A stretch of DNA of 64,000 nt from an archaeon (GTDB taxonomy: Archaea > Nanobdellota > Nanobdellia > Pacearchaeales > UBA284). A program made the translations under genes and the position numbers. The notes under the pieces were generated by a model, which did no database searches, had not been told where the DNA came from, and saw only the letters and a list, made by a program, of their open reading frames with translations. The stretch covers positions 126,413 to 190,412 of the forward strand of contig CP070794.1 in NCBI GenBank assembly GCA_020343435.1, written 5' to 3'. Of the stretch, positions 3,766 to 58,088 are shown piece after piece; the stretch's first letter is position 1; each line of letters starts with the position of its first letter.

Positions 3766-4353
3766 TTACTTAGCTTTTATCCTCACATCAAATCCAAAAG
3801 TATCGTAAGGGGTTTGGGCTGGCCCTTTTGTAACATCCACCCTAAATCTAACAAGACATAGTGGTGCATCTAAATCTGGTTCAAATCTAATAACTGTATA
3901 ATAAGTATCTCCAGGTCCTAAAGGAATGTTTCTTTCTGATTCTCCAGCAACAATCCAGTATTCTGCATCTGAAGCAGAGATCCCACATTTTTCCATTATC
4001 CTACTATCACTTACCTTTACAGTATAACCATAATCACTCTGTCTTGAACCTATATTCCTTATAGCAAACGCCACACCAAATGCCTCTCCTTGTTTTATTT
4101 CTGCCAATCTATCTGATAAATAAAGTGCTGTTCCTTGGTTATCCTCTGAAAATAATTTATTGATTTCTGCCTTTACTTTTTCGTTCATTGAAAGAACATT
4201 TTCTGTAGCTCCTCCAAAGATTTGTCTTACAAAAACTAATCCTAGAACTAATAAAACAACAGCTATTACTATAATGACCATTGTACTTACAGACATTTCA
4301 AATGCTGCTTTTTTGTTAAGTGATCTTAACTTCATTTTAACATCCAGACACAT
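3766..4353 (-). CDS. Secreted/pilin-like protein with an N-terminal class-III-like signal sequence (start probably internal, MKLRSLNKKA..)
   Basis: ..NKKAAFEMSVSTMVIIVIAVVLLVLGLVFV.. is a basic residue followed by a small residue, a hydrophobic helix and an early Glu. The globular beta-rich remainder resembles minor pilins. Confidence 0.35.
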   Translation of the reverse strand: MCLDVKMKLRSLNKKAAFEMSVSTMVIIVIAVVLLVLGLVFVRQIFGGATENVLSMNEKVKAEINKLFSEDNQGTALYLSDRLAEIKQGEAFGVAFAIRNIGSRQSDYGYTVKVSDSRIMEKCGISASDAEYWIVAGESERNIPLGPGDTYYTVIRFEPDLDAPLCLVRFRVDVTKGPAQTPYDTFGFDVRIKAK

Positions 4354-11377: not shown

Positions 11378-12444
11378 AGACAAGCTCCAGATGCTGGGGG
11401 AATATGATAAGTTTCATTAGCTTCTACAAAAGTCATCTCAAGCCAAGAAGGAACTTTATTTGTTGCATCTACAATTTTAACCTCCGAATCCTCAGAACTA
11501 AAGTAAGAATGATCAACAAGACTTTTACCAGGCATTAAAGTACGCCCAACTTTAACCCCATGTATTATGCTCTCAATACCAGATTCTGTATCTTGAGCAT
11601 CAAACTGGCCTTTTAATCTACTTAGATAATTTGGGGCATTGGGACTATATGCATAAAATGAACTAGTATAATCAGGTTCCTGAGCACCATCTGCCCATGT
11701 TCTTTCTAAATGCATGCTTAAATTAGTTCCATTACAAGTTCCAGTACTATTATTAACAAAAGATGTATATGGTGTTCTTTTGATTAAACTAACAACATCT
11801 CTTCCAAATTCTCTGGTATAGAAAGGATCTTCTAAATTATATAATGGAATTTTTCCTTCTACAACAGCATATCTGTCCCATACAGCATTAAGTTCATCAT
11901 CTTCAATAACATAGTGAAGAGTAACATTCATATCAATTGCCCATGGAGTAGATTGACCTATGCTCACCCCAATATCATCTATATCTAAATCCCGGAATTC
12001 TAAATTAATCCCTTGTTTACTTGCTCTATCTATGATACTCCCCTGCCAATCCGCTAGAGTCATCCCTTCTAGAAATCTGGAGCCATCATAACCTTCAATA
12101 ATAAGTTCTCCATTGATAAAAGCATCTTTAAAAACCACATCATAGTCCACACTCAAAGGGATATAATCCTCTGCTGAAGAAATATAATCTAATAATCCTA
12201 AAACAGTCCTATATCCTGAAATATAAATTGCTCTTTCAGCATCTTTTTCTACAGACTCTACAAAACTATTTGTGGTTAGAACTCTGGTTCTAATTGATTC
12301 TTTAGTATACTCTCTTCTGTAAGAAAAAGAAACTAATAATAATAGAGTTATAAGAAAAAGAACTGTTAAAGTAAAGAAAAATGCTTTTTTATTTTTCATA
12401 AATTTTTTATTTTTCATTTTATCTCCAAGCCATTGTTTTTGCAA
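11365..12444 (-). CDS. Pilin-like protein with class III signal peptide (KKA|FFFTLTVLFLITLLLL), 359 aa
   Basis: The N-terminus resembles the FFTLDALFA motif of the upstream adhesin. It overlaps the 1239-aa gene, so it is the last gene of the pilin operon. Confidence 0.5.
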   Translation of the reverse strand: MQKQWLGDKMKNKKFMKNKKAFFFTLTVLFLITLLLLVSFSYRREYTKESIRTRVLTTNSFVESVEKDAERAIYISGYRTVLGLLDYISSAEDYIPLSVDYDVVFKDAFINGELIIEGYDGSRFLEGMTLADWQGSIIDRASKQGINLEFRDLDIDDIGVSIGQSTPWAIDMNVTLHYVIEDDELNAVWDRYAVVEGKIPLYNLEDPFYTREFGRDVVSLIKRTPYTSFVNNSTGTCNGTNLSMHLERTWADGAQEPDYTSSFYAYSPNAPNYLSRLKGQFDAQDTESGIESIIHGVKVGRTLMPGKSLVDHSYFSSEDSEVKIVDATNKVPSWLEMTFVEANETYHIPPASGACLQFI

Positions 12445-15400
12445 TGGTGAAATGTAAAAAAGGAATTCCTGGAACTAAAACAGCATTAATTCCTAACTCT
12501 GTATTGAATTGGATGTCAGACATATTATTCTTAGGATTCTGATCAAGAATGTCATTTAAAAGGTTAAAAACTGCGACATCATAAGCTTCATCTTCATCAT
12601 ATTTTATGTTTGGAGGCCCCAAAGTTTTTGAAAAAGTACAGGTCTCTGTAGGATTTGTACCTGCAGGAACTGCTAATTCAAAAGTTCCTCCAGGAAGATC
12701 AGGATTTGAAGGATCTTGATATTGGATAGTCCATATACAACCCTCTCCAACCTTATTTACAGCCCCGCTATATGAAAAAGTTGGAGGAATAAATAATGTA
12801 TAAATTATCTTACTTGAATCATCTGGAGGAGTTTCATTATATGAACTATTTGTTCCAAAAACTAAACCAACTTCATTTACAGTGGGCCCTTTTGAAATTC
12901 TTTCTACAGGAATATTAATTGTGAAAGGATCTCCTAATGTGATATATGTTTCATTCCATTTAGTTAAATTAAAGAAAGTTAAGTTATGTGTTGTGTTTTG
13001 TATAAAAGATTCTCTGCTCCATAAGTCTCCAGAATAGGAGATAACTGATGCTTCAAAAGGATCTCCAGTTGCAAAAGTAAAACTATCCATCCCTCCTGAG
13101 AAACCATCTGTTTCATAACTTATAAGATCCCCAAAAAGAGAGTTTCCATCAGTATCCCAACCATTATCCTCAAAATCATAACCAAAAGTTACTGTACCAT
13201 TACTAAGATTAGATTTTGCACTTCCTATTACAATGATAACTGATTGATTAGCATAAGTAAGTCTCAAGATTTCTTGTGCCCACTCTCTAAAAATTATCCT
13301 TAGTTCTGAAGCATTATTACTCAAGAAATAATCTCCCTCTCCTTCTTCAGCAATTCTCATCATTAAATCTTGAGCAATAGGACAGAAGGCTATTGGACCA
13401 AATCCAACAGCATATATTGTTGCATTAGCTGTGTTATGGCCCCTAGTTGCTTCACTTATAGATTGATCTATTGACTTTTGATTTACCCAGTCCCCACATA
13501 TCATTAACCAAGAAGAAGCTGAAGAAGAGTAATAATGACTATAAAATCCTTGGGTGTGAGAATTTGTAATTCCTGAAATAATGTACCATTTATTCTCTAT
13601 TAAATTATAAGCTAAATCTGGTGAAGGCCCTTGTCCTCCAGGAGCATCACTTAAATCTAAACCAAAAGCAATAGTATCAGTTCTTGTCCAACCTGTTCCA
13701 TTCCAGAAGAAACCATAATAATCACTACCACTAGATCCAGTAACTAATTCCCATTCTCCTGTACCAGTAATATTAAATCCAGTTGTTGGAGCACTATTAG
13801 TTCCAATATCTCCTGGAGGGGCTAAAGAATCGTCTCTTTCCCAACCTGTTCCATTCCAGAAGAAACTAGCAAAAGAACCATCATCCATCCCAGAAATAAG
13901 CACCCATTTTCCATTACCTGTAAGATTAAAAACAACAGTGGGATCAGCTTGAGTCCTTGAGGCTATAGTTAAACCACCAACCAAGGTAGAATTTGAAACC
14001 CAACTATCACCATCCCAAGAAAATCCTGCAAAACTACCGTTATACAAACCAAAGATCAAATCATGTTTATTAGTCCCAGAAAATTCATATAATAATTCTG
14101 GGGCAGGGTAAGTATTTGAACCTAAGTTAGACAAACCACTTATAACAGATGGTGTAAGGACCCATCTTAATCCATTCCACTCATGACCATAAACATTACC
14201 TGCTTTATCTCCTACAACCAGATTCCACTTTCCATTTCCTCTTAAGTCATAAGTAACAGCAACTTTTGCAGATTGGCCACTTGTTATCTGAGCAACACGA
14301 TCATGACAACCAACACCACAATCAACCCCCTCACAAAAATCATCATCGGGACATCTCTCAGAAATACATCCTGGATCAACACGATCAATATCTGTTTCAT
14401 TACAATGAACATTTGTTAAACCATCTGCTAAAACTAAAATAAAACTTGGTCTATCTTGTTCTTCAGGAGGTCTTGCTTCCAACATCAATCTTGCTTTTCT
14501 CAAACCTGCACAAACAGGAGTATCCCCACCAGTTGCATAACCATTAAGATCACTTACAAGAGTTACATTATTATTAGTGAGTCCTGTAGAATACTGGATA
14601 ACGTTTGGAGTTGTTGCTCCCCCTGGAGTTGAACCAGGTCTTGCGCTATATCCAACCAGTCCAACTCTATTCTCAGAATGTTCTAAAAGTATATTTAAGA
14701 ACTCTATAGCCAAACATTTTGCAACATTTAATCTCCTTCTTCCTGGAAGAAAGATTGGATTATCAGGATCTGAAAGATTGCCACACGCTATATTTTGATC
14801 TCCATTTTTATAGTCTTTGTCCATCCTCCATATCATACTACCAGAAACATCCATAACAACAATTACGTCTGCTGGTCCCCTGCCCCCAATTTGTGCTTCT
14901 ATTTCTTCTATTCCCACTCTAAAAGGAACATTTTCTTTGCTAATATCTAAATAAGTTATACCTTGTTCTGATAAAAGTTTACTTGAGATAGTAGAATTAG
15001 TTATTTGTACAGAATTATATCCTTTTTTATTTCCCCTTTCATCTCTCCATACAGTAACATTTCCTATCTTTACAAAAGGAGTTGTATTCTCTTCCTGCTC
15101 ATATTCTAAATTAATAACCACGTTTGTTAAATTCCCAGGAATGTAGAAAGAATCATAGATATTCATAGATCCATTAATAAATGGAAGATATTTTGTTTCT
15201 GGTAACAAGTATGAAACGCTTCCAGTAGTATATTTTATTTTTAAGAAACCTCCAGCAATGTAAAGAGATCTATTATACGTTGTTGTATTAAATTTGATTT
15301 CATTAATCCCCCCATTAAAATAAGGGTCAATAGGATCTGGAAATTGCCCCCCATCTAAAGAGATAGGACAATGTTTACATGTAGATGGAGAAAAGGTTTC

Positions 15401-16138
15401 AGGGAACAAACGATCATTTACAGATATTTGAAAAGTGTCTCCCATGATCACTCCCTCAAAAGATAAAGAAGTTACATTGATATCCAAAGGTAAATCAAAT
15501 CTTTGAGTTATGTTTCCATCTCCAACATATCCCCCAAAATAAACATATTTTGTTTTCTCTGGTCTATAAAGATAAGCTCTTGAAGAATAACCTTTAACAG
15601 GTTGTTCATAAGCAATCCCACTCATATGTTTTTTAGCAGCAACTACATCTCTTGAATTTGCAAAAGGAATATTGCTTTTAGACCATATTTCAATTAAAAC
15701 AGTTCCAGAAGGGTCTGGAGCTTCAAAATAAAGACCAATATTGTCTTCTTCTGTTGTTATGCTATCAAAAAAACTTTCAGTGATCTCTCCACTAATATTA
15801 TTTGCAGGGGTTTGACCATAATGGGTCGCCCAAATTTTACCAATTGTATCTATTAGATTATCTTTATCTTCCAAAATCTCTATTCGAACAGAATTATTTA
15901 ATTGAGAAATGTTTCCATTTATTAAAGAATTGTTTATACTTACTGTATTGAGATTTGAGAGAAGAGTCAACATATCTTCTTGTAAATAAGAGGTTCTATG
16001 TTTTTCAGGAACATCTCCAACATATGCAAAAGGAACTAAGATAATCACAGATAACAAGATTACCAAAGCAAAAAGAGCATCCAGAGTAAAAAAATACCCC
16101 CTCTTTTGTTTTAGTTTTTTCATTTTAAGCTTTTTCAA
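12419..16138 (-). CDS. Giant pilin-anchored adhesin with class III signal peptide, a vWA domain carrying a complete MIDAS, and FG-GAP-like beta-propeller repeats (integrin-like)
   Basis: N-terminus KRG|YFFTLDALFALVILLSVIIL. vWA: ADVIVVMDVSGSM (DxSxS), ..GGDT.., ..LVLADGLTN... Four repeats of G(N/D)GKW.L..G...G.F..F.WNGTGW (aa about 630-830). Many N-x-S/T sequons. Confidence 0.7.
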   Translation of the reverse strand: MKKLKMKKLKQKRGYFFTLDALFALVILLSVIILVPFAYVGDVPEKHRTSYLQEDMLTLLSNLNTVSINNSLINGNISQLNNSVRIEILEDKDNLIDTIGKIWATHYGQTPANNISGEITESFFDSITTEEDNIGLYFEAPDPSGTVLIEIWSKSNIPFANSRDVVAAKKHMSGIAYEQPVKGYSSRAYLYRPEKTKYVYFGGYVGDGNITQRFDLPLDINVTSLSFEGVIMGDTFQISVNDRLFPETFSPSTCKHCPISLDGGQFPDPIDPYFNGGINEIKFNTTTYNRSLYIAGGFLKIKYTTGSVSYLLPETKYLPFINGSMNIYDSFYIPGNLTNVVINLEYEQEENTTPFVKIGNVTVWRDERGNKKGYNSVQITNSTISSKLLSEQGITYLDISKENVPFRVGIEEIEAQIGGRGPADVIVVMDVSGSMIWRMDKDYKNGDQNIACGNLSDPDNPIFLPGRRRLNVAKCLAIEFLNILLEHSENRVGLVGYSARPGSTPGGATTPNVIQYSTGLTNNNVTLVSDLNGYATGGDTPVCAGLRKARLMLEARPPEEQDRPSFILVLADGLTNVHCNETDIDRVDPGCISERCPDDDFCEGVDCGVGCHDRVAQITSGQSAKVAVTYDLRGNGKWNLVVGDKAGNVYGHEWNGLRWVLTPSVISGLSNLGSNTYPAPELLYEFSGTNKHDLIFGLYNGSFAGFSWDGDSWVSNSTLVGGLTIASRTQADPTVVFNLTGNGKWVLISGMDDGSFASFFWNGTGWERDDSLAPPGDIGTNSAPTTGFNITGTGEWELVTGSSGSDYYGFFWNGTGWTRTDTIAFGLDLSDAPGGQGPSPDLAYNLIENKWYIISGITNSHTQGFYSHYYSSSASSWLMICGDWVNQKSIDQSISEATRGHNTANATIYAVGFGPIAFCPIAQDLMMRIAEEGEGDYFLSNNASELRIIFREWAQEILRLTYANQSVIIVIGSAKSNLSNGTVTFGYDFEDNGWDTDGNSLFGDLISYETDGFSGGMDSFTFATGDPFEASVISYSGDLWSRESFIQNTTHNLTFFNLTKWNETYITLGDPFTINIPVERISKGPTVNEVGLVFGTNSSYNETPPDDSSKIIYTLFIPPTFSYSGAVNKVGEGCIWTIQYQDPSNPDLPGGTFELAVPAGTNPTETCTFSKTLGPPNIKYDEDEAYDVAVFNLLNDILDQNPKNNMSDIQFNTELGINAVLVPGIPFLHFTIAKTMAWR

Positions 16139-16718
16139 AAGACCATAAATAAATAACCATCCTTAAAGGAATGGTAATGTTACTTTCATTCTTATAAGCA
16201 ACTAAACGTTCTATTTTAACAAGTTGTGTTGGATTCTTACCTTGTATTGTATTTCCTGCTCCAGAACAACCCCCAGGATCTGGAATTAATCTTGGAACCG
16301 GGGGGTCACTATAAAAATCCTCCATATTATCAAAAAATTGTATGAAAAAAGATGATTGGGTTCCAAACTTTTCTTTAACACCTGAATAATAGTTTTCGCT
16401 CCAATCACAAAATTTTGTCCATTTCGCTGGATCCAATGTATTATCAGTAATTAATCCAAATTGATAAATATCTTCAAGGTTCTCTGGACTAAGCGTAATT
16501 TCTTCCCATCCTGGAGGGGTCCCATTAATTAATAGAGAATTTGATATATATCTTCCTTCTCTCACCATCCTACTAACAATGTTTTGTTCAGGAACAAAAC
16601 TTACAGAATAACGATAGAAAAGAAAAATAATCATAACAAAAACCATTAGACCAATAGCTAAGTCAAGAGCCCAAACTTGAGCTTTTTTATTTTTTCTTGA
16701 GAGATTTAAGTTTGGCAA
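16125..16718 (-). CDS. Pilin-like protein (class III signal peptide KKA|QVWALDLAIGLMVFVMIIF)
   Basis: 197 aa; basic N-terminus, small residue, then Q and a hydrophobic helix. It overlaps neighbours on both sides. Confidence 0.5.
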   Translation of the reverse strand: MPNLNLSRKNKKAQVWALDLAIGLMVFVMIIFLFYRYSVSFVPEQNIVSRMVREGRYISNSLLINGTPPGWEEITLSPENLEDIYQFGLITDNTLDPAKWTKFCDWSENYYSGVKEKFGTQSSFFIQFFDNMEDFYSDPPVPRLIPDPGGCSGAGNTIQGKNPTQLVKIERLVAYKNESNITIPLRMVIYLWSFEKA

Positions 16719-17140
16719 TCTAATTTTAATTCCTCCTGTTCTCCAGCTTCTCTAATCTTTTCTATAGTAACTGTTCCCCCTGGAATAAGAGGTTCCACAT
16801 CATTAATATAAGGTGTTCCTCTCGACGCTGTGAATTTAGTTTCACTCCCTCTTAAAGTTTTAACTACAAAACCATATCCAGAATCAGACATTAAGATAGA
16901 ATACTCTTTTCCAGTAATTTTTTTAGGTAATGTAAACTCTCTAGAATAATTTGGAGGGGATCCCGAAGCTAAAGTTATTTCTTGTTGTAGAAAATTTGCA
17001 AAATCATTTAAAGATTCTTGTTCATTTTTCTCTCTTGCTAAAGAAGTATTAAAATTAGCTGAAGCAATCATTATTACTACTAAAAAAATAACTGCTGAGA
17101 CTAATAATGTGAATTCAATTGTTACTTGTCCTTTTTTCAT
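16706..17140 (-). CDS. Type IV pilin (archaeal, Q-x-S/T-x-E-F class; KKG|QVTIEFTLLVSAVIFLVV)
   Basis: The QxTxEF motif after KG is characteristic of EppA/PibD-processed archaeal pilins (DUF361-like). 144 aa. Confidence 0.65.
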   Translation of the reverse strand: MKKGQVTIEFTLLVSAVIFLVVIMIASANFNTSLAREKNEQESLNDFANFLQQEITLASGSPPNYSREFTLPKKITGKEYSILMSDSGYGFVVKTLRGSETKFTASRGTPYINDVEPLIPGGTVTIEKIREAGEQEELKLDCQT

Positions 17141-17141
17141 T

Positions 17142-17600
17142 TTATTGATTTGTTTTGGTTACCTCAACATAAATCCCATTAGAATCATTCTTTGCTTCCA
17201 AAGTCAGAGTCTTAAAACCTGCCTTAGATAAACTGGTTTGGACACCCCCTCCATCCTCTATTCTTCCTTGAGTATCATAAATCATATCTGATCTCGCTGT
17301 TCCTTTGATAGTAACTTTAAAATGGATGCCAAAAGGGGAAGTATCTAGAAACTCTACACTATAAACGCTCTCAGGAATAGTTACTTGAATTGTTGCCTTA
17401 GAAGGAGGACCTAAAAAGTAAATTGAATCGGCAGCTTCAGCAATTTTTTTTCCAGCTTTATCAACAGTATTGACTTTTATTTGAGTTTTTGCTGTTCCAG
17501 AATAATAGTAAGCGATACCTATTATGGCTATTAAAAGGAAAGTAATAAAACCAATAAGTAAAGCGAACTCTACACTTACCTGACCTCTTTTTTTTCTCAT
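17142..17600 (-). CDS. Type IV pilin (archaeal; RG|QVSVEFALLIGFITFLLIAII), probable major pilin
   Basis: Canonical class III signal peptide with Q+1, S+3, E+5, F+6. It is the first gene of the operon and 152 aa long. Confidence 0.7.
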   Translation of the reverse strand: MRKKRGQVSVEFALLIGFITFLLIAIIGIAYYYSGTAKTQIKVNTVDKAGKKIAEAADSIYFLGPPSKATIQVTIPESVYSVEFLDTSPFGIHFKVTIKGTARSDMIYDTQGRIEDGGGVQTSLSKAGFKTLTLEAKNDSNGIYVEVTKTNQ

Positions 17601-17682
17601 AATTTCAAAGTAAGGTTTATAAAATACCTTTTCTTTTTAAACTGTGTAAAAAAAGAGGCTGTGATTTATAAATCTTACTAGA
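17601..17682. promoter_or_regulatory. Divergent promoter region between the pilin operon (-) and the pilus-assembly operon (+), with TATA-like boxes
   Basis: ggtttataaaa (about 17615-17626) and gatttataaatc (about 17655-17666), each about 25-30 bp from the respective start codon. These are AT-rich BRE/TATA-like elements. Confidence 0.35.
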
Positions 17683-19293
17683 ATGGATTACCAAAAGAAA
17701 CTGAAAAAAAAGTATGGTGAAACATATCTTCGGGAAGTATTCAATGAGAGAGTCACAAAAATTTTAATTTTAGAAACATATAGGGGAACTATTTTTATTG
17801 AACTTTTCCATAAAGATATCCCTTTGATTAAAGATGTTATCTCTAGTGTTCTTTTGGGGGAACTTGATGGGATGGTATTTTACAATTGTAATCCTTACTT
17901 CTTACAATTAAGAAAAAGTGCTGAAGAAAAAAAGATGTCTGATAGGATTCTTAGACCCTACTTACAAAACATAAAGGGAACTGTTGGTTTGGTAAGTTCG
18001 AAAAGAAATGCACAGAAATCTTTACTAGATCATTTTTACATTTGTTTATCTGATGTTCCTGAAATCGATGGAGAATATACTATAATTGGAAAGGTGGTTC
18101 GTGGTTTTGATATTTTAACTAAGGTATGGAATGGTAATACTATAAGAAGAGCATACATAGAAAAAGGATTTGTTGGAAAAGAACCAACAATTAAGAGGTT
18201 GGGAGCACTATACTGGGTTGGTTTAGCAACAATTTTATTTTATGCGTTCTGGTTATTATCAAGAAATCTTGTTTCATTACAAAATTTCCAAAAATCTATT
18301 TTTGGAAGTGTTTTTACAGAAACGCTATCCAAAGGAAACGCGATATTTATTCTGATAGTGGGAATAATTCTGATAATCTTTGCTTTAACAGTAAGTGGAT
18401 TAAGTGCGAGAGTGAAAGTTGGAGAAACACCAACAGCCCTAAAAGAGAGAGACGAAGAGAAAAAGATGTTGATGAAAGTTAGAGAAAAGAGATTAAAGAT
18501 GATGGAGACGTTGAGAAAGAAAGAAAAAAGTAAAACCCCGGTTTTTAAGAAAGAAGTTAGAGAGGAAGATAAAGGAGGAAAAAGACTGGAAAAAGAGAAA
18601 AGAGAGATTGAAGAACTTAGAAAGAAGTTAGAGAGAGAAAAGAAAGAATTTGAGGAGCGTCTTAGAAAACAAAAAGTTCCTTCAAAAGCAGAATTAAGAG
18701 AATTAAGTAAAGGAAAGGAGGAAAAAGAGAGATTAAAGAAGGAGAGATTAAGACTAAGAGAAATAAAAGCTAAAAGAAAAGCTAAGGAAGAAGAGAAAAA
18801 GAGGAGAGAAGAAGAAAAGATTAAGATAAGAGAGGCTAAGATAAGAGAAAAGAAAGCTAGAGAAAAGGCAAGAGAAGACGCTAAGAAAAAAGCAGAGGAA
18901 GAAAGACAGAAGATTAAAGAGGCTAAGATAAGAGAAAAGAAAGAAAGGATTAAGAAGACTGTGAAAGAAAAGAATAAAGAAGAACAGAAAGAGAGGAAAA
19001 AGATGGTACAAGTAATGGAAAAACACATAGATACTAAAAAAGAGATTAAAAAGAAACTAAAAGAAGAAATTAAAAGAGAAGTATTACCAAGAATTGCTCA
19101 AAAAACTGAGACACAATTAGATATTTTATATGATCTTTTAGAAAAATATAAAACACTAAAATTAGATTATATTATGAAAACATTTGAGATTAGTAAAGAA
19201 GAAGCAATAGAGTGGTGTAATATTCTTGTTGAAAATGGTCTTGCTGAATTAAAATATCCTGCATTTGGAGAGCCCCTTTTAATTAAAAAATGA
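17683..19293 (+). CDS. Fusion protein: N-terminal cyclophilin-type PPIase-like domain, 2 TM helices, about 220-aa E/R/K-rich predicted single alpha-helix/coiled-coil region, and a C-terminal winged-helix-like domain
   Basis: TYRGTIFIELFHKDIPL.. and ..GEYTIIGKVVRGFDILTKV resemble cyclophilin motifs (..HvVFGkV.eGmdVv.ki). TM helices at aa about 172-195 and 220-240. Highly charged repeats (EKKAREKAREDAKKKAEEERQKIKEAKIREKK) from nt about 18430 to 19090. C-terminus ..LDILYDLLEKYKTLKLDYIMKTFEISKEEAIEWCNILVENGLAEL. Confidence 0.5.
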   Translation: MDYQKKLKKKYGETYLREVFNERVTKILILETYRGTIFIELFHKDIPLIKDVISSVLLGELDGMVFYNCNPYFLQLRKSAEEKKMSDRILRPYLQNIKGTVGLVSSKRNAQKSLLDHFYICLSDVPEIDGEYTIIGKVVRGFDILTKVWNGNTIRRAYIEKGFVGKEPTIKRLGALYWVGLATILFYAFWLLSRNLVSLQNFQKSIFGSVFTETLSKGNAIFILIVGIILIIFALTVSGLSARVKVGETPTALKERDEEKKMLMKVREKRLKMMETLRKKEKSKTPVFKKEVREEDKGGKRLEKEKREIEELRKKLEREKKEFEERLRKQKVPSKAELRELSKGKEEKERLKKERLRLREIKAKRKAKEEEKKRREEEKIKIREAKIREKKAREKAREDAKKKAEEERQKIKEAKIREKKERIKKTVKEKNKEEQKERKKMVQVMEKHIDTKKEIKKKLKEEIKREVLPRIAQKTETQLDILYDLLEKYKTLKLDYIMKTFEISKEEAIEWCNILVENGLAELKYPAFGEPLLIKK

Positions 19294-21083
19294 AAAAAAG
19301 AAAGATAAAATCAAGGACCAAGAAAAAAAAAGTGAAGAAAAGAAAAAAGTCTTTCCATGCTCTCTCTGTTCCAAAACCAACTTGGAAAAAACCAATAAAA
19401 GAAACACATGATAAACTTGGTTTTCCAAGTAAAACTGTAGAAATAAAAAAAGTGGGTTCTGTAGTGACAACCCCACAGACAGAAAAAGACAAAAAATTGG
19501 GTTTACCAACAAAGACAGATAAAGAAGAGATACAAGAAATAAAAACCAAGATCAAGGAAAGAATTCAAGTTCATGGAAAGATCATAAAAACATATGATAT
19601 TGATTCTAATAATGTTAAGGTAAAGATATCTATATTAGATACAGAAAAAGGACTATTCTACCAAATAAAAATTCCAGAAATATCTCGTCCAACTCGGGCA
19701 CTTTTAGAGAACATAAAACAAAAATTAATAGGCACTATTGAAATGGGGGCTTCTGAGATAACAGATATTAATGCTATAGAAAAACTAAAACAAAAATTAA
19801 TATCTCGTTCAAAAGACTTATTACAAAGATTCAAATCATCTAGGGATAACATAACTCTTTTAACAAGTATTCTAATTAATGAGATGTTGGGGTTAGGCAA
19901 TATAGAACTTTTAGTTGCAGATCCCCATTTAGAAGAAATAGTTATAGCATCTGCACAAGAACCTGTAAGAGTTTATCATAAAGAATTTGGTTGGTTGCCA
20001 ACGAACATTTATTTAGAAAACGAAAAACAAACTGAAAATTACTCTGCTATAATTGCAAGGCGTGTTGGAAGACAAATTACAACCCTAACTCCAATGTTGG
20101 ATGCTCACCTTGTAACTGGTGATCGTGTAAATGCTGTTTTATATCCTATATGTACAAGAGGGAATACAATAACAATTAGGAAATTTGCAAGAGAACCATG
20201 GACCATTGTGGATTTCATTAATAATAAGACTTGCAGTGCAGACGTTTTTGCGATGATATGGATGGCAATACAATATGAAATGAACATTCTATTTTCTGGT
20301 GGAACAGCCTCTGGAAAAACAACTATGTTGAACGTCTGCACTCCTTTCTTCCCAGCAAATCATAGAATTCTAAGTATTGAAGATACTAGAGAGTTGCAGT
20401 TACCAGAACACTTGTATTGGTCTCCATTAACAACAAGGTTACCAAATCCTGAAGGAAAGGGAGCAGTTACAATGTTGGATCTATTGGTTAATAGTTTAAG
20501 AATGAGGCCAGATAGGATAATTCTTGGAGAGGTAAGAAAACACGAAACAGCAGAAGTACTTTTTGAGGCAATGCATACTGGTCATAGTGTTTATTCTACA
20601 GTTCACGCAAATACATCTTCAGAAACAGTTGCTAGATTAGTAAATCCCCCAATTAGCATTCCTCCAAACTTGTTGAAAGCAGTAGACCTTAATGTTGTAA
20701 TGTTTAGAGAGAGGAGAAGAGGAATAAGAAGAGTCTTTCAATTAACAGAACTAATTCCAGATGAAACTGATAAAAACGGAGTAAAGCCAAATATCCTTTA
20801 TAGATGGGAACCAAGTTCAGATAAGATTATATCTCATGCTTCAACTTTAAGATTCTTTGAAGATATGTCAAGACATACTGGAATGAGTTTTTCTCAGATT
20901 AATAAAGATCTAAAAGAAAAAAAAGAATTTATAGAACATCTTGTGAAAAACAACATCAGAGAGATGAATAGTATAGGAAAAATGATTCAGGATTTCTATC
21001 TTAAAAAAGGAATAAAAGATATAAAAACCAAAAAACCTTCTAAAATTAAGAAAATTAAAAAGAAAAAGAGAAAAAAGAGGTAA
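19290..21083 (+). CDS. Type IV pilus / archaellum-type assembly ATPase (FlaI/ArlI-PilB-GspE-VirB11 superfamily)
   Basis: Walker A FSGGTASGKTTMLN, Asp/Glu boxes (..ILSIEDTRELQL..), His box (..ILGEVRKHE..) and a Lys-rich N-terminal extension. Its start overlaps the upstream gene. Confidence 0.85.
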   Translation: MKKRKIKSRTKKKKVKKRKKSFHALSVPKPTWKKPIKETHDKLGFPSKTVEIKKVGSVVTTPQTEKDKKLGLPTKTDKEEIQEIKTKIKERIQVHGKIIKTYDIDSNNVKVKISILDTEKGLFYQIKIPEISRPTRALLENIKQKLIGTIEMGASEITDINAIEKLKQKLISRSKDLLQRFKSSRDNITLLTSILINEMLGLGNIELLVADPHLEEIVIASAQEPVRVYHKEFGWLPTNIYLENEKQTENYSAIIARRVGRQITTLTPMLDAHLVTGDRVNAVLYPICTRGNTITIRKFAREPWTIVDFINNKTCSADVFAMIWMAIQYEMNILFSGGTASGKTTMLNVCTPFFPANHRILSIEDTRELQLPEHLYWSPLTTRLPNPEGKGAVTMLDLLVNSLRMRPDRIILGEVRKHETAEVLFEAMHTGHSVYSTVHANTSSETVARLVNPPISIPPNLLKAVDLNVVMFRERRRGIRRVFQLTELIPDETDKNGVKPNILYRWEPSSDKIISHASTLRFFEDMSRHTGMSFSQINKDLKEKKEFIEHLVKNNIREMNSIGKMIQDFYLKKGIKDIKTKKPSKIKKIKKKKRKKR

Positions 21084-21085
21084 AA

Positions 21086-21967
21086 ATGAAGTTAAGAATT
21101 CCATTTTCTTTTTATCCGCCAAAATTTTTGTATAGGTTCTCAAATGCTTTTCTATCAGTTGGTAAAAAGATGGTTTCTAAAAATAAGAATATGGAGCTAT
21201 ACTTCTCACAATCAGATTTCCCAATAAAACCTGAAAGATATATTGCTGCTTCTATTGCATCAACAATTCTTAATTTAATTATTTTCAGTTTAATCTTTAT
21301 AATAATTTTCAGAGCAGGAGGATCAAATCCTCTTTTTGGATTGCTTATCGGCATAGTAGTTGCAGGGTTCATGTATATGCAGCAATTAAATTATCCTAAG
21401 ATGATAATTTCTAAACGTATAAGAAACATTAATGTTAATATTCTTCCAGCAATCAGAGCTTTAATGATTCAATTAAATGCTGGAATTACATTCTTTAATG
21501 CTTTAAAAAATATAGCAAAAGGAAATTATGGAGTAATTTCAGAAGAATTCCAAAAAGCAATAAACTCTATGGAAGCTGGAGTTCCTGCAGTTGAAGCTCT
21601 TGAAAAAATTTCTAGAAACAATCCTTCGCTCTTCTTCAGAAGAGCTATTTGGCAGATAATAACTGGAATCCAAGTTGGAGCAGATATTTCAATAGTTCTT
21701 AAGGAAATTGTTCATTCATTAGTACAAGAACAAATGACAGAGATACAAGCATATGGAGGGAGGTTGTCTCCATTAGCTATGTTTTATATGGTTATCTCAA
21801 TTATATTCCCAGCATTAGGGATAACATTTTTGATGATATTATCTACATTTATACAAGGTCTTGGACAAAATTACCAGTTGATACTTTTCGGAATATTAGC
21901 ATTAGTTATTTTATTCCAGTTTATATTTTTGGGAATGATAAAATCAAGGAGGCCGCCACTGATATAA
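21086..21967 (+). CDS. Pilus assembly polytopic membrane protein, TadB/TadC (T2SS-F/FlaJ-like) half 1
   Basis: 293 aa with multiple TM segments and a cytoplasmic helical domain (..ALMIQLNAGITFFNALKNIAKG..) typical of the GspF/TadC repeat. It lies directly downstream of the ATPase. Confidence 0.65.
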   Translation: MKLRIPFSFYPPKFLYRFSNAFLSVGKKMVSKNKNMELYFSQSDFPIKPERYIAASIASTILNLIIFSLIFIIIFRAGGSNPLFGLLIGIVVAGFMYMQQLNYPKMIISKRIRNINVNILPAIRALMIQLNAGITFFNALKNIAKGNYGVISEEFQKAINSMEAGVPAVEALEKISRNNPSLFFRRAIWQIITGIQVGADISIVLKEIVHSLVQEQMTEIQAYGGRLSPLAMFYMVISIIFPALGITFLMILSTFIQGLGQNYQLILFGILALVILFQFIFLGMIKSRRPPLI

Positions 21968-21968
21968 A

Positions 21969-22934
21969 ATGAGATTATTTGCAAGATTTTCACCAAAGTT
22001 CACAGAAAAGATAGAAAAGCTAGTAGAATATGCTAATGTTAAAAAGAATCCTAGAGAACTTGCAGGGATGATTATTTTCATAAGTCTAGTAATTGCTGTA
22101 GTTGCGTTTGTAGCATTATTCTTGTTTGTTGGGTGGATATACTCCATTCCAGTAGCAGTTGTAATTTATTTTGTGGTTCCATTAATCTTCCAGTTAATGC
22201 TTGTTCTAAAAGCAGATAAAAGAGCTTCCCAAGCAGAAGAAGCACTACCAGATGCTTTGCAATTAATGGCAACAAACTTGAGAGCAGGATTAACAACAGA
22301 TAAAGCACTTTTAGTTTCAGCAAGAGAAGAGTTTGGGGTACTTAATGAAGAATTTAAGCGGGTTGCAAAAGAGATTGCTGTGGGAAAAGAGATAACAGAG
22401 TCATTAAAAAGAATGTCAGAAAGAATACATTCAGATCTTGTAGAAAGAACTTTAAGTCTAATAATTTTTGGAATAATTTCTGGAGGAGAATTAGCATCAT
22501 TACTCGAAGAATCTGCTGCAAGCCTAAGACAACAAAGTCTAACAAGAAAACAAATTCATGCAAGTGTCTTAATGTATACTATTTTCATAATTGTTGCAGT
22601 GGCAGCTATTTCTCCTCTACTCTTTGGATTAAGTTCTGTTCTTACAGAAACTATGCAAGAAACTATTGGATCTATAGAAGCTCCGCCTCCAGAAGTTACT
22701 TCTCAGGTTCCATTATCCATCTCGCCAGTAGACATAGATGTTGGTTTGATAAGGATATTTATAATAATACTATTAGTAGTAAGTGCTATCCTAAGTTCTC
22801 TGGTTTTAGGACTAATATCTAAAGGTAATGAAAAAGCGGGATTAAAATATATACCAATATTAATGATAATCTCTTTAGTGGTGTTCTTTGTAGTAAGAAC
22901 TGGAATTGTAAAACTTCTGGAGATGTTTTTCTAG
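21969..22934 (+). CDS. Pilus assembly polytopic membrane protein, TadC/FlaJ-like half 2
   Basis: 321 aa; a second GspF-like repeat (..LQLMATNLRAGLTTDKALLVSAREEFGVLNEEFKRVAKEIAVGKEITESLKRMSER..). Together with the previous gene it equals a split FlaJ. Confidence 0.65.
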   Translation: MRLFARFSPKFTEKIEKLVEYANVKKNPRELAGMIIFISLVIAVVAFVALFLFVGWIYSIPVAVVIYFVVPLIFQLMLVLKADKRASQAEEALPDALQLMATNLRAGLTTDKALLVSAREEFGVLNEEFKRVAKEIAVGKEITESLKRMSERIHSDLVERTLSLIIFGIISGGELASLLEESAASLRQQSLTRKQIHASVLMYTIFIIVAVAAISPLLFGLSSVLTETMQETIGSIEAPPPEVTSQVPLSISPVDIDVGLIRIFIIILLVVSAILSSLVLGLISKGNEKAGLKYIPILMIISLVVFFVVRTGIVKLLEMFF

Positions 22935-22973
22935 GACAGAAAAGAATTTAAATCTTAAAATAGAAAGAATAAC

Positions 22974-23732
22974 ATGGTAAAAAAGAAAAAAGGGGTAAAG
23001 AAGAAAGTTAAGAAGATAATTAAAAAAAATGAAAAGATAGAAACAGGGATCCCGGCTTTTGATAAGATTAGTAAGGGGGGATTTAATGAAGAATCTGTTA
23101 ATTTAATTGTTGGTGGAGCTGGAGCTGGTAAAACTATTTTTTCTATAAAATTCTTAATGGAAGGAATGATCAAAGGAGAAACTTGTCTGTACATTACTTT
23201 TGAGGAAAAGAAAGATGAATTATATAAGAACATGCTGTCTTTTGGATGGGATTTAGCAGATTATGAAAAAAAAGGTAAGTTTATCTTTGTGGAATATACT
23301 CCTGAGAAAGTTAGAAAAATGCTTCAAGAAGGTGGGGGGGCTTTAGAAAGTCTTATGTACAGTAAAAAAATAAGTAGGCTTGTGATAGATAGTGTAACTT
23401 CCTTTACCCTACTTTTTGAAGGGGAATTGGCAAAAAGAGAGGCAGCTCTTTCATTATTTGATATGACTAGAAGATGGAAAACAACTGTATTACTAACGTC
23501 AGAAAGAGAATTAACAAAAAAAGATTTAACATCTGGGACAAGTTCAGCTCTAGAATTCGAAGCAGATTCTATAATATTACTTTATTTCTTAAGAGAGGGC
23601 GGGGAAAGAAAGAGGTTGATAGAAGTCCTTAAAATGAGAGGAACCCAACACTCTAAAAGCCTTTATCCTTTTCAAATAACTAGTAAGGGTGTTGAGATAA
23701 GTAGTAAAGCTAAGAAAATAAATCTAAAATAA
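22974..23732 (+). CDS. KaiC/RecA-superfamily ATPase, FlaH(ArlH)-like
   Basis: GIPAFDKISKGGFNEESVNLIVGGAGAGKT (Walker A) and ..LYITFEE.. match the KaiC-like domain. The 252-aa single domain and position next to the pilus ATPase and membrane genes mirror FlaH. Confidence 0.7.
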   Translation: MVKKKKGVKKKVKKIIKKNEKIETGIPAFDKISKGGFNEESVNLIVGGAGAGKTIFSIKFLMEGMIKGETCLYITFEEKKDELYKNMLSFGWDLADYEKKGKFIFVEYTPEKVRKMLQEGGGALESLMYSKKISRLVIDSVTSFTLLFEGELAKREAALSLFDMTRRWKTTVLLTSERELTKKDLTSGTSSALEFEADSIILLYFLREGGERKRLIEVLKMRGTQHSKSLYPFQITSKGVEISSKAKKINLK

Positions 23733-24138: not shown

Positions 24139-24507
24139 TTAATCTCTTAACCAAACATATGCTATAAATTTTTGGGTGTTTCCACTTTCCCAAACAAAAA
24201 AAGTTGAAGAACCAATTTCTTTTTCTAAGTTGGGAGGACTACATTTAGGATCACATTTTCTTATAGAGACGTCAAACCTTGTATGATTTATTTTTTCTTT
24301 TAATTTGGAATTTAAATCTTCAACATTTGTTAATAAAGATCCTCTCTCAGTAGTTGTCGCTTCTTCAACAACATAATCTAAAACAGAACTTGTATCTATA
24401 GATGTACTCCCTGGTTGTCTTGACATAGATATGAATAAAAAACTAAACATGATTAGAACTGCTATAACAACTTCTATAACTAAAAGCCAACCTTTTTTAT
24501 TCACCAT
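24139..24507 (-). CDS. Pilin-like small protein (KKG|WLLVIEVVIAVLIMF), 122 aa
   Basis: The N-terminus closely resembles the bacterial/archaeal type IV pilin G|FTLIEVVIA consensus. It overlaps the upstream gene and is downstream of the DUF87 ATPase. Confidence 0.45.
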   Translation of the reverse strand: MVNKKGWLLVIEVVIAVLIMFSFLFISMSRQPGSTSIDTSSVLDYVVEEATTTERGSLLTNVEDLNSKLKEKINHTRFDVSIRKCDPKCSPPNLEKEIGSSTFFVWESGNTQKFIAYVWLRD

Positions 24508-25190
24508 ATTCTCATATTCACCAATGCTTCCTGAACATTGGCATTTTCATCTATTATTTTAATTTTGAATTCTTTAGCATAAACTCTAACATCAAATGGC
24601 TCAAATTCTGTAATATTAAACAAAATTTCTTCTCCTTGTTTGATTATAATTGAAAAATCTCTATCAAAACCAAGTTGTTTTCTGAATTCTCTGTAATCTT
24701 TGGAATAATTCTCCCTAAACTCTTCTAATTTATCATAAAAAACAAATTCTTCTTCTTTGATAAAGGAATAGCTGTAATCTTCAGTTGGATCACATGTTGG
24801 TCCTGAAGAAACACTCTCAAAGTATTCTGAAAAGAATAAACTATATTTACCAGAACCATGGCTCCCTACATGAATATTATTGCTTGAATCAAAATTAAAA
24901 TCAATAACAGAACCCCCTTCTTTGATAATCAAATTATCCGGAGAACCCTGAAAATTAGTATTAAAAGGAACATTAAAACAAGTTTTAGTAGTGGTAATTG
25001 TAAGATTAGCTATTTTAACTGGAATCTCTGTTCTTTCTCTAAATTCTTTTTCTAGAAGAAGAAAAGAATTACCTTCATTAGATCTTAAAGAAAAATGTGA
25101 GATATATAAAACAGCCAAAACACATATAATAAATATACTTACAGCAATTACATATTCTACATGATGAACACCTTTTTTATTTTTCATCAT
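24501..25190 (-). CDS. Pilin-like protein (NKKG|VHHVEYVIAVSIFIICVLAV), 229 aa
   Basis: Class-III-like N-terminus, then a beta-rich extracellular domain. It overlaps the DUF87 ATPase gene (25187). Confidence 0.45.
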   Translation of the reverse strand: MMKNKKGVHHVEYVIAVSIFIICVLAVLYISHFSLRSNEGNSFLLLEKEFRERTEIPVKIANLTITTTKTCFNVPFNTNFQGSPDNLIIKEGGSVIDFNFDSSNNIHVGSHGSGKYSLFFSEYFESVSSGPTCDPTEDYSYSFIKEEEFVFYDKLEEFRENYSKDYREFRKQLGFDRDFSIIIKQGEEILFNITEFEPFDVRVYAKEFKIKIIDENANVQEALVNMRIW

Positions 25191-26515
25191 AATCTTTTTT
25201 TGATTTTTATAGCAGTAGGAGCTTCACCACCATGCCATGTAAATCTTGGCCTAACTCTCATAGGATAAATTCTTTCAGAATTATCATCTAAAATTATTGC
25301 TGATCCTTTAAGTCTTGGTAAATTATCAATATATGTTTTAATATCTGCAGCCAGATAGCTCTGCATAATGTAATTCAAAGCATCAACATCTGGTTTAGCT
25401 GTAACTCTGTGAGATATGACTACATCAGATTGAGTCATAACATCTTTATGAATCTGTCCTGGTTGTTGGGTTGCTAAGACCAAGGAAATACCTGGTTGTC
25501 TTCCTTCTCTTAAAATTTGAATTAAAGCGTCTGTTGCAGCTGTTTTTCCTTCAACTGGTAAGAATTCGTGAGCTTCATCTATAGCCATCCAAACTAATGG
25601 CATCTCTCTTTTCTCTTTATAATGTAAGTAATCTAAACCATGTCTTACTCCTTCAACTTCCTCATGTTTTCTTGCTTCCATTCTTTGATTAAATATTTTT
25701 TTAGAAACTAATCCTATTACTAAAGCCCTAACATTGAAAGATCCAATACTGCTATAACAACTTAAATCTAAAATTGTTGTACTCCCTGCCTTAACTAACT
25801 CTTCAACTTTGGTCCCTTCTTCTTTTTTTGGTGCAAAAACTCCCCAAGTATCTGCTCCTTCAAATAAGTTTATAGCAGCATCTTTTTCATGTTTAGCAGC
25901 ACGAGTATCTTTTTGTATAGCTTTAACAATATCTTTTATATCAAAATCTCTAATTCTATTGTTTTCTAGTTCATCTAACAATAATTGAACATTTCTTTCA
26001 ACAACAAGTGCAACAGGATCTATGAATTCCAATCCAAAAGTAATAATCCAATCATCTATACTAATATCAGAGACTTTTAATGCAAATGGTTTGGTTGCAA
26101 CAATTCCTTTTTCTTTGTATTTTTTAAAATAACCAAAAGGGACATAAACTTTAACAGGCAATTTTTTAGAGTCTATCCCCCATTGTTTTAACAATGCAGC
26201 TTCTTTTTCATTTTTATGAGACATTGTCCAGAAGATTCCCATAGTATCAAAAATTAAGAAAGATAAATTTTGTGAGATTTCTTTATCTAAATCTGCTAAT
26301 TCTTCTGCAATAACCCCAATTGAATAAGATTTTCCTGAACCTCTTTTACCAGCTATTAGGATTACATGACTTCTGGCAATATCCACAAGAACCCGATTAC
26401 TTAAACTAGTAACATGCCCCATTTTAACATAATGTTTTCCTAAATAGATCAAAGCTTCTTTACCAAATCTCTTTTTATCTGCCTCATCTCTACCAATAAC
26501 AATATCTTCTGGCAT
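25187..26515 (-). CDS. DUF87 / HerA-FtsK-VirB4-like P-loop ATPase
   Basis: Walker A ILIAGKRGSGKSYSIG, Walker B WMAIDEAHEFL and a ..LVLATQQPGQI.. motif (the TQRP-like motif of HerA/FtsK/TraG families). 442 aa. First gene of a three-gene operon with two pilin-like proteins. Confidence 0.7.
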   Translation of the reverse strand: MPEDIVIGRDEADKKRFGKEALIYLGKHYVKMGHVTSLSNRVLVDIARSHVILIAGKRGSGKSYSIGVIAEELADLDKEISQNLSFLIFDTMGIFWTMSHKNEKEAALLKQWGIDSKKLPVKVYVPFGYFKKYKEKGIVATKPFALKVSDISIDDWIITFGLEFIDPVALVVERNVQLLLDELENNRIRDFDIKDIVKAIQKDTRAAKHEKDAAINLFEGADTWGVFAPKKEEGTKVEELVKAGSTTILDLSCYSSIGSFNVRALVIGLVSKKIFNQRMEARKHEEVEGVRHGLDYLHYKEKREMPLVWMAIDEAHEFLPVEGKTAATDALIQILREGRQPGISLVLATQQPGQIHKDVMTQSDVVISHRVTAKPDVDALNYIMQSYLAADIKTYIDNLPRLKGSAIILDDNSERIYPMRVRPRFTWHGGEAPTAIKIKKRL

Positions 26516-57862: not shown

Positions 57863-58047
57863 TTCAAAACCTCCAGAACTTTTGCTCTTAACCTAGATTT
57901 GCCTCCTGTTGGTCTAGTTAAGGGGGCCTTACATTTTAAACAACTAACTTTGGTAGTTGCTTTTCCGAAAATCACTTGATCTTCTTCACATTTAGGACAT
58001 CTAACTCTAACAAATTTGCTCTTAGTTATTCTAATTTGTTTTGGCAT
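57859..58047 (-). CDS. rps27e: Ribosomal protein S27e
   Basis: ..FVRVRCPKCEEDQVIFGKATTKVSCLKCKAPLTRPTGGKSRL.. carries the eS27 C4 zinc-finger signature. It overlaps eif2a by 4 nt. Confidence 0.85.
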   Translation of the reverse strand: MPKQIRITKSKFVRVRCPKCEEDQVIFGKATTKVSCLKCKAPLTRPTGGKSRLRAKVLEVLK

Positions 58048-58088
58048 TTTATGATAAAAAGATCTTGCTTTTTAAAGCTTTTTAAGAC

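Follow-up and report, generated by a model that had tools for sequence, protein, structure and literature searches.

A type IV pilus operon with a KaiC-family ATPase in an archaeon of the Pacearchaeales

Gene content of the pilus locus

A predicted type IV pilus (T4P) locus lies on contig CP070794.1 of an archaeon of the Pacearchaeales, within a stretch of 64,000 nucleotides (64 kb) that we call the window. On the plus strand, positions 17683-23732 form an operon of five co-directional, closely packed open reading frames (ORFs; g1 to g5), with a 4-nt overlap between g1 and g2 and gaps of 2, 1 and 39 nt at the junctions that follow. These genes are predicted to encode a membrane-anchored winged-helix protein, a pilus assembly ATPase, two platform proteins, and a single-domain ATPase of the KaiC family (Table 1). 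An initial annotation of this interval listed the ATPase, the two platform proteins, and the KaiC protein, all of which we recovered, and omitted the first gene. A minus-strand operon diverges from these genes, running from 17600 down to 11365, and encodes five proteins with class III signal peptide-like N-termini. One of these is a 1239-aa protein with a VWA domain, in agreement with the divergent operon of adhesin-type pilins described initially. Two TTTATAAA elements in the intergenic region resemble archaeal TATA boxes and may serve as such. Scanning for bacterial sigma-70 promoters gave 26 sites compared with 28.5 expected, a result that depends on a bacterial consensus and is uninformative for an archaeon. 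The window has a G+C content of approximately 31% and contains archaeal housekeeping genes for S19e, PCNA, Hjc, aIF2-alpha and archease.

Several features identify this as the locus of an adhesive T4P. A FlaI/VirB11-family ATPase and a TadC/T2SSF platform are encoded in a single operon, and the five adjacent pilin-like proteins have a K/R-G/A motif followed by a hydrophobic helix, as in class III signal-peptide pilins. The window also encodes a prepilin peptidase. Our Pfam scan covered window ORFs of 100 aa or more, except for three plus-strand ORFs (554-982, 2295-2750 and 57976-58314) that lie within longer annotated ones. Among the scanned ORFs we found no archaellin, FlaF/G, FlaCDE, or FlaX family, which upholds the initial statement that the window lacks archaellins, FlaF/G and FlaC/D/E. 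The pilin-like proteins gave no Arch_flagellin (PF01917) signal even at E-values up to 1.

The pilin-like proteins match TadE, TadF and Class_IIIsignal, in all cases below threshold. For the 152-aa pilin the E-values were 0.0024 (TadE) and 0.0044 (Class_IIIsignal), and for the 144-aa pilin 3.5e-4 (Class_IIIsignal). Both small pilins are conserved in related loci, the 144-aa one divergently from the ATPase operon. The 1239-aa protein contains a VWA domain (Pfam VWA_2, 2.3e-6) with a DVSGS metal ion-dependent adhesion site motif, has repeats resembling FG-GAP, weakly matches the CglB adhesin, and is conserved in most of the related loci. The gene for the 197-aa protein stays beside the VWA gene in both of the locus layouts described below. 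No Pfam family matched the 359-aa protein, whose homologues come after the VWA protein in related loci.

Class III signal peptide-like N-termini also occur elsewhere in the window, in a 189-aa ORF at 3766-4335 (minus strand; KKA↓AFEMSVSTMVIIV) and in a 275-aa ORF at 39604-40431 (minus strand; MYKRG↓QTTLFIIIAV). The latter heads a minus-strand run (34734-39607) with two large proteins of 712 and 926 aa that lack a Pfam family. These ORFs may represent extra sets of pilins or surface proteins that use the same machinery.

Table 1. Features of the pilus locus, with positions counted from the first letter of the window. Arrows mark predicted cleavage points in class III signal peptide-like N-termini.
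Feature	Position	Strand	Size	Details
Pilin-like protein (p359), last gene of the pilin operon	11365-12444	-	359 aa	..MKNKKA↓FFFTLTVLFLITLLLL (KKA↓FFFTL...)
Giant pilin-like adhesin	12419-16138	-	1239 aa (1234 aa from ATG at 16123)	KRG↓YFFTLD
Minor pilin-like protein (pil197)	16125-16718	-	197 aa	..KNKKA↓QVWALDLAIGLMVFVMIIF (KKA↓QVWALD...)
Small pilin	16706-17140	-	144 aa	MKKG↓QVTIEFTLLVSAVIFLVVIMIA (MKKG↓QVTIEF...)
Small pilin, candidate major pilin, first gene of the divergent operon	17142-17600	-	152 aa	MRKKRG↓QVSVEFALLIGFITFLLIAIIGIA (MRKKRG↓QVSVEF...)
Divergent intergenic region	17601-17682		82 bp	two TTTATAAA elements, 17616-17623 and 17666-17673
g1, first gene of the assembly operon	17683-19293	+	536 aa	cyclophilin-like domain, two transmembrane helices, coiled coil, winged helix
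g2, pilus assembly ATPase, FlaI/VirB11/CpaF superfamily	19290-21083	+	597 aa	Pfam T2SSE 1.4e-36
g3, platform protein 1	21086-21967	+	293 aa	one T2SSF domain, Pfam T2SSF 1.2e-16
g4, platform protein 2	21969-22934	+	321 aa	one T2SSF domain, Pfam T2SSF 2.2e-16
g5, single-domain KaiC-family RecA-like ATPase	22974-23732	+	252 aa	PF06745 1.5e-56
Prepilin (class III signal) peptidase	54248-55114	+	288 aa	approximately 30 kb from the operon; Pfam Peptidase_A24 4.1e-15

Assembly ATPase, platform and KaiC-family protein

The g2 protein has K-rich tails at both termini and contains the Walker A sequence GGTASGKTT, confirming the FlaI/PilB-type ATPase recognized initially. Its matches in the PDB were, in descending order, AfGspE (2OAP, 1.2e-67), FlaI (7e-57) and CpaF (1.6e-48), and the pairwise scores to these three solved structures, which are not a tree, were 231.9, 196.4, and 168.8 bits. 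The top-scoring named NCBIfam family was FlaI at 292 bits, below its cut-off of 550. Identity to plasmid-borne CpaF was 35-38%. AfGspE (AF0659) is a member of clade 2 (arCOG01817) in Fig. S4 of Makarova, Koonin and Albers (PMC4858521).

The platform is split between g3 and g4, as was first proposed, with the two proteins matching the N- and C-terminal halves of UpsF/ArlJ. Alignment of g3 to the NCBIfam UpsF model covered positions 42-234 of 484, and g4 aligned to positions 264-438 of this model and to 184-463 of the 465 positions of ArlJ, in both cases far below the cut-offs. The ArlJ models gave at most 47.9 bits with the platform proteins (cut-offs 400-570). The operon does not encode an archaellum core as judged by the ArlI and ArlJ equivalog models, which failed, by the platform, which is formed by two genes, or by the KaiC gene, which is downstream.

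The product of g5 is 100% identical to NCBI protein JSW08_00840 and scored 191.8 bits against the Pfam KaiC model (PF06745; cut-off 26.6), placing it in the KaiC family and bearing out its annotation as a single-domain KaiC ATPase. Its best 120 database relatives, with 55-78% identity, come from metagenome-assembled genomes (MAGs) named Pacearchaeota, Nanoarchaeota or "archaeon". The protein contains a Walker A motif (GGAGAGKT), a catalytic glutamate pair (E77-E78), a Walker B motif (IDS, residues 138-140), and an LKMRG motif. Residues G47, G50, G52, K53, F76-E77-E78, I138-D139-S140 and L219-K220-M221-R222-G223 are invariant in 50 homologues. A further motif of this subfamily, E-Y-x-P-E-x-V-x-x-M-x-x-E-G-G-G at residues 107-122, is near-invariant in 120 homologues and lies opposite a variable region of cyanobacterial KaiC in the HMMER alignment, making it a candidate interaction surface. 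This protein differs from cyanobacterial KaiC in having one domain rather than two and in having this motif of its own. It does not qualify as a circadian KaiC oscillator, consisting of one 252-aa domain with neither a KaiA nor a KaiB family found among the scanned window ORFs. The residues at the CII phosphosites of KaiC (S431/T432) are Glu-Phe, as in CI. The conserved residues suggest that the g5 protein is probably catalytically active and uses genuine ATP hydrolysis, unlike ArlH, whose Walker B motif is incomplete and which shows no ATPase activity (PMC10117864; PMC8978795). ArlH, ArlI and ArlJ are grouped together in the former study (PMC10117864).

The initial annotation called this protein FlaH-like, a description that the family models do not support. 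Scores with the NCBIfam ArlH (NF052589; 60.6 bits, cut-off 215) and FlaH models (NF004723, 52 bits, cut-off 194; NF006320, 29 bits, cut-off 215) were all far below cut-off. The NCBIfam KaiC and KaiC_arch_3 models gave 158 (cut-off 408) and 153 bits (cut-off 249). Among PDB sequences, the protein is far nearer by sequence to the KaiC CI domain (2e-33) and to the single-domain KaiC-like proteins of archaea PH0186 (8e-31), PH0284 (2e-29) and SSO2452 (9e-26) than to FlaH (4YDS), for which the E-value was 0.008 and the score 19 bits, the same as for RadA. Its predicted fold is likewise nearer in the model comparison to KaiC (28.1; 32%), PH0284 (26.6; 34%) and SSO2452 (25.6; 28%) than to FlaH from S. 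acidocaldarius (20.7; 23%) or M. jannaschii (20.5; 17%), while Rad51 paralogues gave 20-21.5 (16-17%). Model cut-offs, pairwise scores and fold comparison agree that the g5 protein is not an ArlH/FlaH orthologue. It had also been placed in the position that FlaH occupies. This does not hold, since the KaiC gene comes after the platform genes and FlaH is encoded before FlaI; in arl/fla clusters, H is located before I and J.

Conservation of the locus in DPANN archaea

The initial annotation put forward conservation of this gene order in relatives as a check on the locus. We sampled one genome per GTDB species, giving 27 loci that are almost all labelled Pacearchaeota, Woesearchaeota or Nanoarchaeota, and ran the window proteins by local phmmer against the ORFs of the fetched loci (cited here by L numbers). 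At least 1 kb of sequence was available upstream of the KaiC gene in 23 of the 27, which made these testable. The series winged-helix protein, ATPase, TadC1, TadC2 and KaiC, full or truncated, was found in 17 of the 23, and KaiC-tadC adjacency in 17 of 23 at 52-78% identity. The gene order is thus co-conserved in relatives. Metagenome contigs L001, L002/L003 and L004/L005 have the order T2SSE-T2SSF-T2SSF-KaiC with divergent small ORFs, and their KaiC proteins are 78%, 59% and 56% identical to g5. Judged by model cut-offs, pairwise scores and fold comparison, the KaiC protein falls outside FlaH; its neighbours in other genomes are conserved, not unrelated.

Two layouts of the pilin genes were observed. 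In layout A (the window, L001, L004, L006, L010, L014, L016 and L026), all five pilin-like genes are divergent. In layout B (metagenome contig L002/L003 and 7 of the 17 syntenic species loci, namely L012, L018, L019, L021-L023 and L031), the genes for the 197-aa, VWA and 359-aa proteins lie directly 3' of the KaiC gene on the same strand, with a gap of 36 nt between KaiC and the first of them in L021. Because these pilin genes directly follow KaiC on the same strand, KaiC is embedded in the pilus operon in layout B. L024, which has no upstream sequence, contains the first two downstream genes of layout B before the contig ends.

Median identity to the window proteins across 18 loci was 57% for KaiC, 56% for the ATPase, 44% for the winged-helix domain, 39-42% for the TadC proteins, and 26-36% for the pilins. 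By this sequence measure, KaiC is as constrained as the motor ATPase. Woesearchaeota-type loci L020, L025, L026, L028 and L030 contain a tandem KaiC pair. In L025, L026, L028 and L030, the downstream copy is the g5 orthologue and the upstream copy is a paralogue with TSEE in place of TFEE and no EGGG motif. In L020, both copies are of the TFEE/EGGG type and the upstream one is the nearer match to g5. Such tandem arrangements recall the two-domain KaiC and the clusters with two kaiC genes reported from Nanohaloarchaeota.

The first gene of the operon encodes a divergent cyclophilin-like domain (residues 29-155; Pfam Pro_isomerase, 8e-12), two hydrophobic, predicted transmembrane helices, and a K/E-rich coiled coil of approximately 220 residues. 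Where cyclophilins have the catalytic motif FHR, this domain has FYN in the alignment, so that it apparently lacks the catalytic Arg. At the C-terminus, behind hydrophobic and probably membrane-spanning segments, is a winged-helix domain of approximately 65 aa (TQLDILYDLLEK...YPAFGEPLL). This domain is retained in the opening gene of the operon in 20 of 32 fetched loci. These are L001-L004 and 16 of the 17 species loci with synteny, the exception being L031, which is truncated by the end of its contig. The homologues are usually a short form of 158-200 aa with a transmembrane segment and the winged helix. Fusion to the cyclophilin-like domain is confined to the window, L001 and L006, and we therefore rejected this domain as a general part of the system. 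In a word-indexed protein search, the 71-aa winged-helix domain gave one match, and the distribution of the domain as given here comes from the local phmmer searches of fetched loci. No Pfam or NCBIfam family matched through the winged-helix domain. A single-sequence AlphaFold (AF2) model of it had a pLDDT of 78.5 and H-b-H-H-b-b topology. With this model, Foldseek recovered generic winged helices (MarR, ESCRT-II, S25e and Scc1-C) at a TM-score of approximately 0.7 and no match at E-values of 1e-3 or below. Possible roles for the protein are those of a scaffold at the membrane for the cytoplasmic ATPases or of a regulator tethered to the membrane.

This KaiC also occurs at 48-53% identity in L027 (MFKK01000014.1), L025 and L030, under labels of "Candidatus Jorgensenbacteria bacterium", a member of the candidate phyla radiation (CPR), or "uncultured Methanosarcinales". 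These labels probably reflect mis-binning or mislabelling rather than true occurrence.

Relation to known pili and role of the KaiC-family protein

KaiC ATPases have been described in non-archaellum archaeal T4P operons of clade 2 and subclade 4B, two tadC genes are present in many loci of clades 1 and 2, and VWA proteins are among the T4P-associated components (PMC4858521). The idea of an unusual hybrid between archaellum and pilus machineries, put forward in the initial annotation, thus gives way to an arrangement already reported. The locus is a lineage-typical DPANN variant of it, an archaeal T4P with two TadC proteins and a KaiC-family ATPase. It resembles euryarchaeal clade 2 T4P (arCOG01817; AfGspE AF0659; the Haloferax PilB3/PilB4 loci) in its FlaI/VirB11-family ATPase, for which AfGspE is the best solved relative, in its class III signal-peptide pilins, and in the association with VWA-domain proteins. 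Clade 2 loci also often have two tadC genes and have a KaiC-family ATPase in or next to the operon. The locus differs from these in its DPANN host, a group that the 2016 census reached through a few nanoarchaeal genomes. It differs further in that KaiC is a near-constant member of the operon and is conserved like the ATPase, in that the operon starts with a membrane-anchored winged-helix protein, and in that the pilins have no recognizable arCOG-type or Pfam family.

The archaellum core of ArlH, ArlI and ArlJ also brings together a KaiC-like protein with one RecA-fold domain, an ATPase of the FlaI family, and a platform of the T2SSF type. Because such a KaiC-like protein is co-encoded here with the same two components, an ArlH-like role in docking or timing is the best functional analogy for the g5 protein (PMC8978795). 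Unlike the archaellum core, the present locus has a KaiC that is not an ArlH orthologue, that keeps its catalytic glutamates, and that is encoded downstream of the platform genes; the platform is formed by two genes, and the window scan found no archaellins, ArlF/G or ArlX/CDE.

Bacterial Tad (Flp) and archaeal Epd-like pili share with this locus two single-domain platform proteins like TadB/TadC, a CpaF-related ATPase, and small pilins, which here have weak, sub-cut-off TadE/TadF-type N-terminal matches. The 1239-aa VWA pilin-like protein is reminiscent of TadG. However, the locus has no TadZ/CpaE ParA-type ATPase, and no ParA/CbiA-family protein was found among the scanned window ORFs. It also has no secretin, an absence that is expected in archaea. 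The KaiC and winged-helix membrane proteins are not Tad components, and CpaF is a lower-scoring match to the ATPase than either AfGspE or FlaI.

Tad-like clusters are also known from other DPANN archaea. Those of Nanohaloarchaeota ("Nucleotidisoterales") include kaiC genes, for which a modulating effect on the pilus was suggested, and the clusters have been compared with others from Undinarchaeota (PMC9563170). Like the present locus, these clusters are of the TadA/TadB/TadC type without archaella, and some have kaiC. The Nanohaloarchaeota clusters were reported to have two kaiC copies and neither annotated pilins nor a peptidase, whereas the window has a single kaiC and five pilin-like genes. 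DPANN pilus loci with unrecognizable pilins were noted in 2019 (PMC6393860), and DPANN MAGs are commonly said to encode a type IV pilus and no archaellum (PMC8561730). Our literature search found no experimental work on the KaiC-like ATPase of a non-archaellum pilus. A study of groundwater CPR bacteria and DPANN archaea described T4P components as "missing in DPANN genomes" and used pili to call cells CPR (10.1101/2020.05.14.094862). The "NC_groundwater" MAGs L015 and L028 (the latter a complete chromosome, CP066683.1), apparently from the same groundwater project, encode this KaiC family, and L028 contains the full ATPase-TadC-TadC locus.

From these comparisons we consider it likely that the operon makes up the assembly half of an adhesive T4P locus of ten genes, of a kind typical of Pacearchaeota/Woesearchaeota-type DPANN archaea, and that the KaiC protein is a dedicated partner of the machine, not an ArlH orthologue. 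The A24 peptidase (54248-55114) would cleave the class III signal peptides of the five pilin-like proteins, where K/R-G/A is followed by Q, Y or F. By homology with Tad/Epd pili and euryarchaeal clade 2 pili, a hexamer of the FlaI/VirB11-family ATPase acting on a heterodimeric TadC1/TadC2 platform would then polymerize the small pilins. The 197-aa, VWA and 359-aa proteins would form a set of minor pilins and tip adhesins for attachment, presumably to host cells. The KaiC protein, drawn from the general archaeal pool of KaiC-like proteins, would most likely form a cytoplasmic ring of the RecA type that docks onto the assembly ATPase to gate or time it, by analogy with ArlH and ArlI in the interaction model (PMC8978795). 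The membrane-anchored winged-helix protein would be a further conserved cytoplasmic component, acting as a scaffold or membrane-tethered regulator.

The sequence data show that the KaiC protein belongs to its family, keeps its catalytic residues, is a member of the operon, and is conserved at the level of the ATPase; physical contact with the ATPase and a regulatory role are suggested by analogy with ArlH. Several points weigh against this reading. A general role as signalling hubs has been proposed for the KaiC-like ATPases of archaea, and transcription is the level at which CirA acts (PMC10983859). KaiC homologues without adjoining pilus genes were found in 6 of the 23 testable loci (L011, L015, L017, L029, L030 and L032), and in L020, L026 and L028 the KaiC pair is 1-3 kb from tadC with unrelated genes in between. 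KaiC is thus not always locked into the operon. The "clade 2" label of the ATPase comes from pairwise sequence scores to three structures, not from a phylogeny, and the absence of archaellum genes covers the 64-kb window of the genome.

Instead of acting on the machine, the KaiC protein could be a signalling or timing switch on pilus gene expression or activity, perhaps through the winged-helix protein of g1, in the manner of Haloferax CirA, a KaiC-like protein encoded beside the arl cluster that reduces arl transcription (PMC10983859). Makarova et al. regarded T4P-linked KaiC ATPases as "potential regulatory or modulating proteins" (PMC4858521), the C-terminal fold of the g1 protein is common to MarR-type DNA binders, and some KaiC homologues lie away from pilus genes. 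The winged-helix match is generic, however, with nothing at or below the 1e-3 level, and no KaiB-type or output partner was found among the scanned ORFs. In layout B, KaiC lies between the platform and minor-pilin genes, and conservation equal to that of the motor ATPase is a better fit to a stoichiometric part of the machine. We regard such indirect regulation as rather unlikely. Because of the position of KaiC inside the operon and its motor-level conservation, we favour a direct partnership with the machine and judge it roughly twice as probable as indirect regulation.

The other alternatives concern the identity of KaiC and its place in the operon. If the protein were a component of the FlaH/ArlH clade, the locus would be an archaellum/Aap-Ups hybrid or the sole machinery for archaellins encoded elsewhere. 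Consistent with this, ArlH is also a KaiC-like RecA-fold protein, the NCBIfam ArlH model aligns to the full length of g5 (E-value of 1.8e-16), FlaI is the top named family for the g2 ATPase, and approximately 584 kb of genome lie beyond the scanned window. Set against these are the three ArlH/FlaH models and the FlaI and ArlJ models, all far under cut-off, a match to FlaH no better than that to RadA, and a catalytic EE pair where ArlH is non-hydrolysing. The gene order is unlike arlH-I-J, the solved structure nearest to the ATPase is that of AfGspE, a pilus ATPase of clade 2, the pilins carry no archaellin signal, and the same locus with adhesin-type pilins recurs through the lineage. This reading is largely refuted here and we consider it very improbable. 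We find it harder still to credit that KaiC merely neighbours the pilus operon by chance and functions with downstream genes such as archease. The 39-nt gap before KaiC is indeed wider than the other junctions, and the archease gene abuts the 3' end of KaiC in the window, L001, L006 and L007. Yet archease is convergent and found there only in the closest relatives, whereas KaiC is linked to tadC in most of the testable species loci and is followed by pilin genes in layout B.

A more specific form of the partnership between KaiC and the assembly machine, which we regard as doubtful, would have KaiC form a second, stoichiometric ring that hydrolyses ATP in a non-rotary pilus motor, and the winged-helix/coiled-coil protein act as an ArlX-like scaffold. 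If so, a layer of KaiC plus scaffold on a T4P ATPase exists outside the archaellum, either through independent recruitment or as a pre-archaellar state of the kind from which ArlH was drawn. A 2022 perspective had ArlH recruited "from an unknown source" (PMC9087265), and a well-conserved KaiC-like ATPase tied to a non-rotary T4P bears on that origin. The general association of KaiC with T4P was published in 2016, so that the conceptual gain is modest. What remains of interest is the near-obligate, ATPase-level conservation of KaiC, the winged-helix membrane component, the origin of ArlH, and host attachment by DPANN archaea. These archaea need contact with host cells, for which pili are prime candidates. 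The pilus locus that is standard in Pacearchaeota/Woesearchaeota is complete and conserved, includes a VWA adhesin, a dedicated ATPase of the KaiC type, and a winged-helix membrane protein that lacks annotation, and provides a concrete gene set for annotation and for host-attachment experiments.

Two neighbouring features of the window are recorded here. Beyond the operon and the archease gene, a 442-aa HerA/FtsK-like P-loop ATPase is encoded at 25187-26515 on the minus strand (Pfam DUF87, 2.5e-10; Zot, 2e-6; best PDB match HerA, 9e-11). It is followed on the same strand by two small proteins with pilin-like N-termini, at 24501-25190 (MKNKKG↓VHHVEY...) and 24139-24507 (MVNKKG↓WLLVIEV...). At the corresponding position, L001 has a DUF87 ATPase and two Pfam-less genes (223 and 131 aa), matched by size and position. 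The minus-strand genes at 24139-26515 may make up a second membrane or filament module, one driven by HerA. Elsewhere in the window, a 720-aa protein encoded at 31057-33219 on the plus strand is an unusual fusion, in which the core of a class II tRNA synthetase of the Asp/Lys/Asn type and an OB anticodon domain are joined to a C-terminal B3/4 domain of the kind that normally belongs to PheRS beta.

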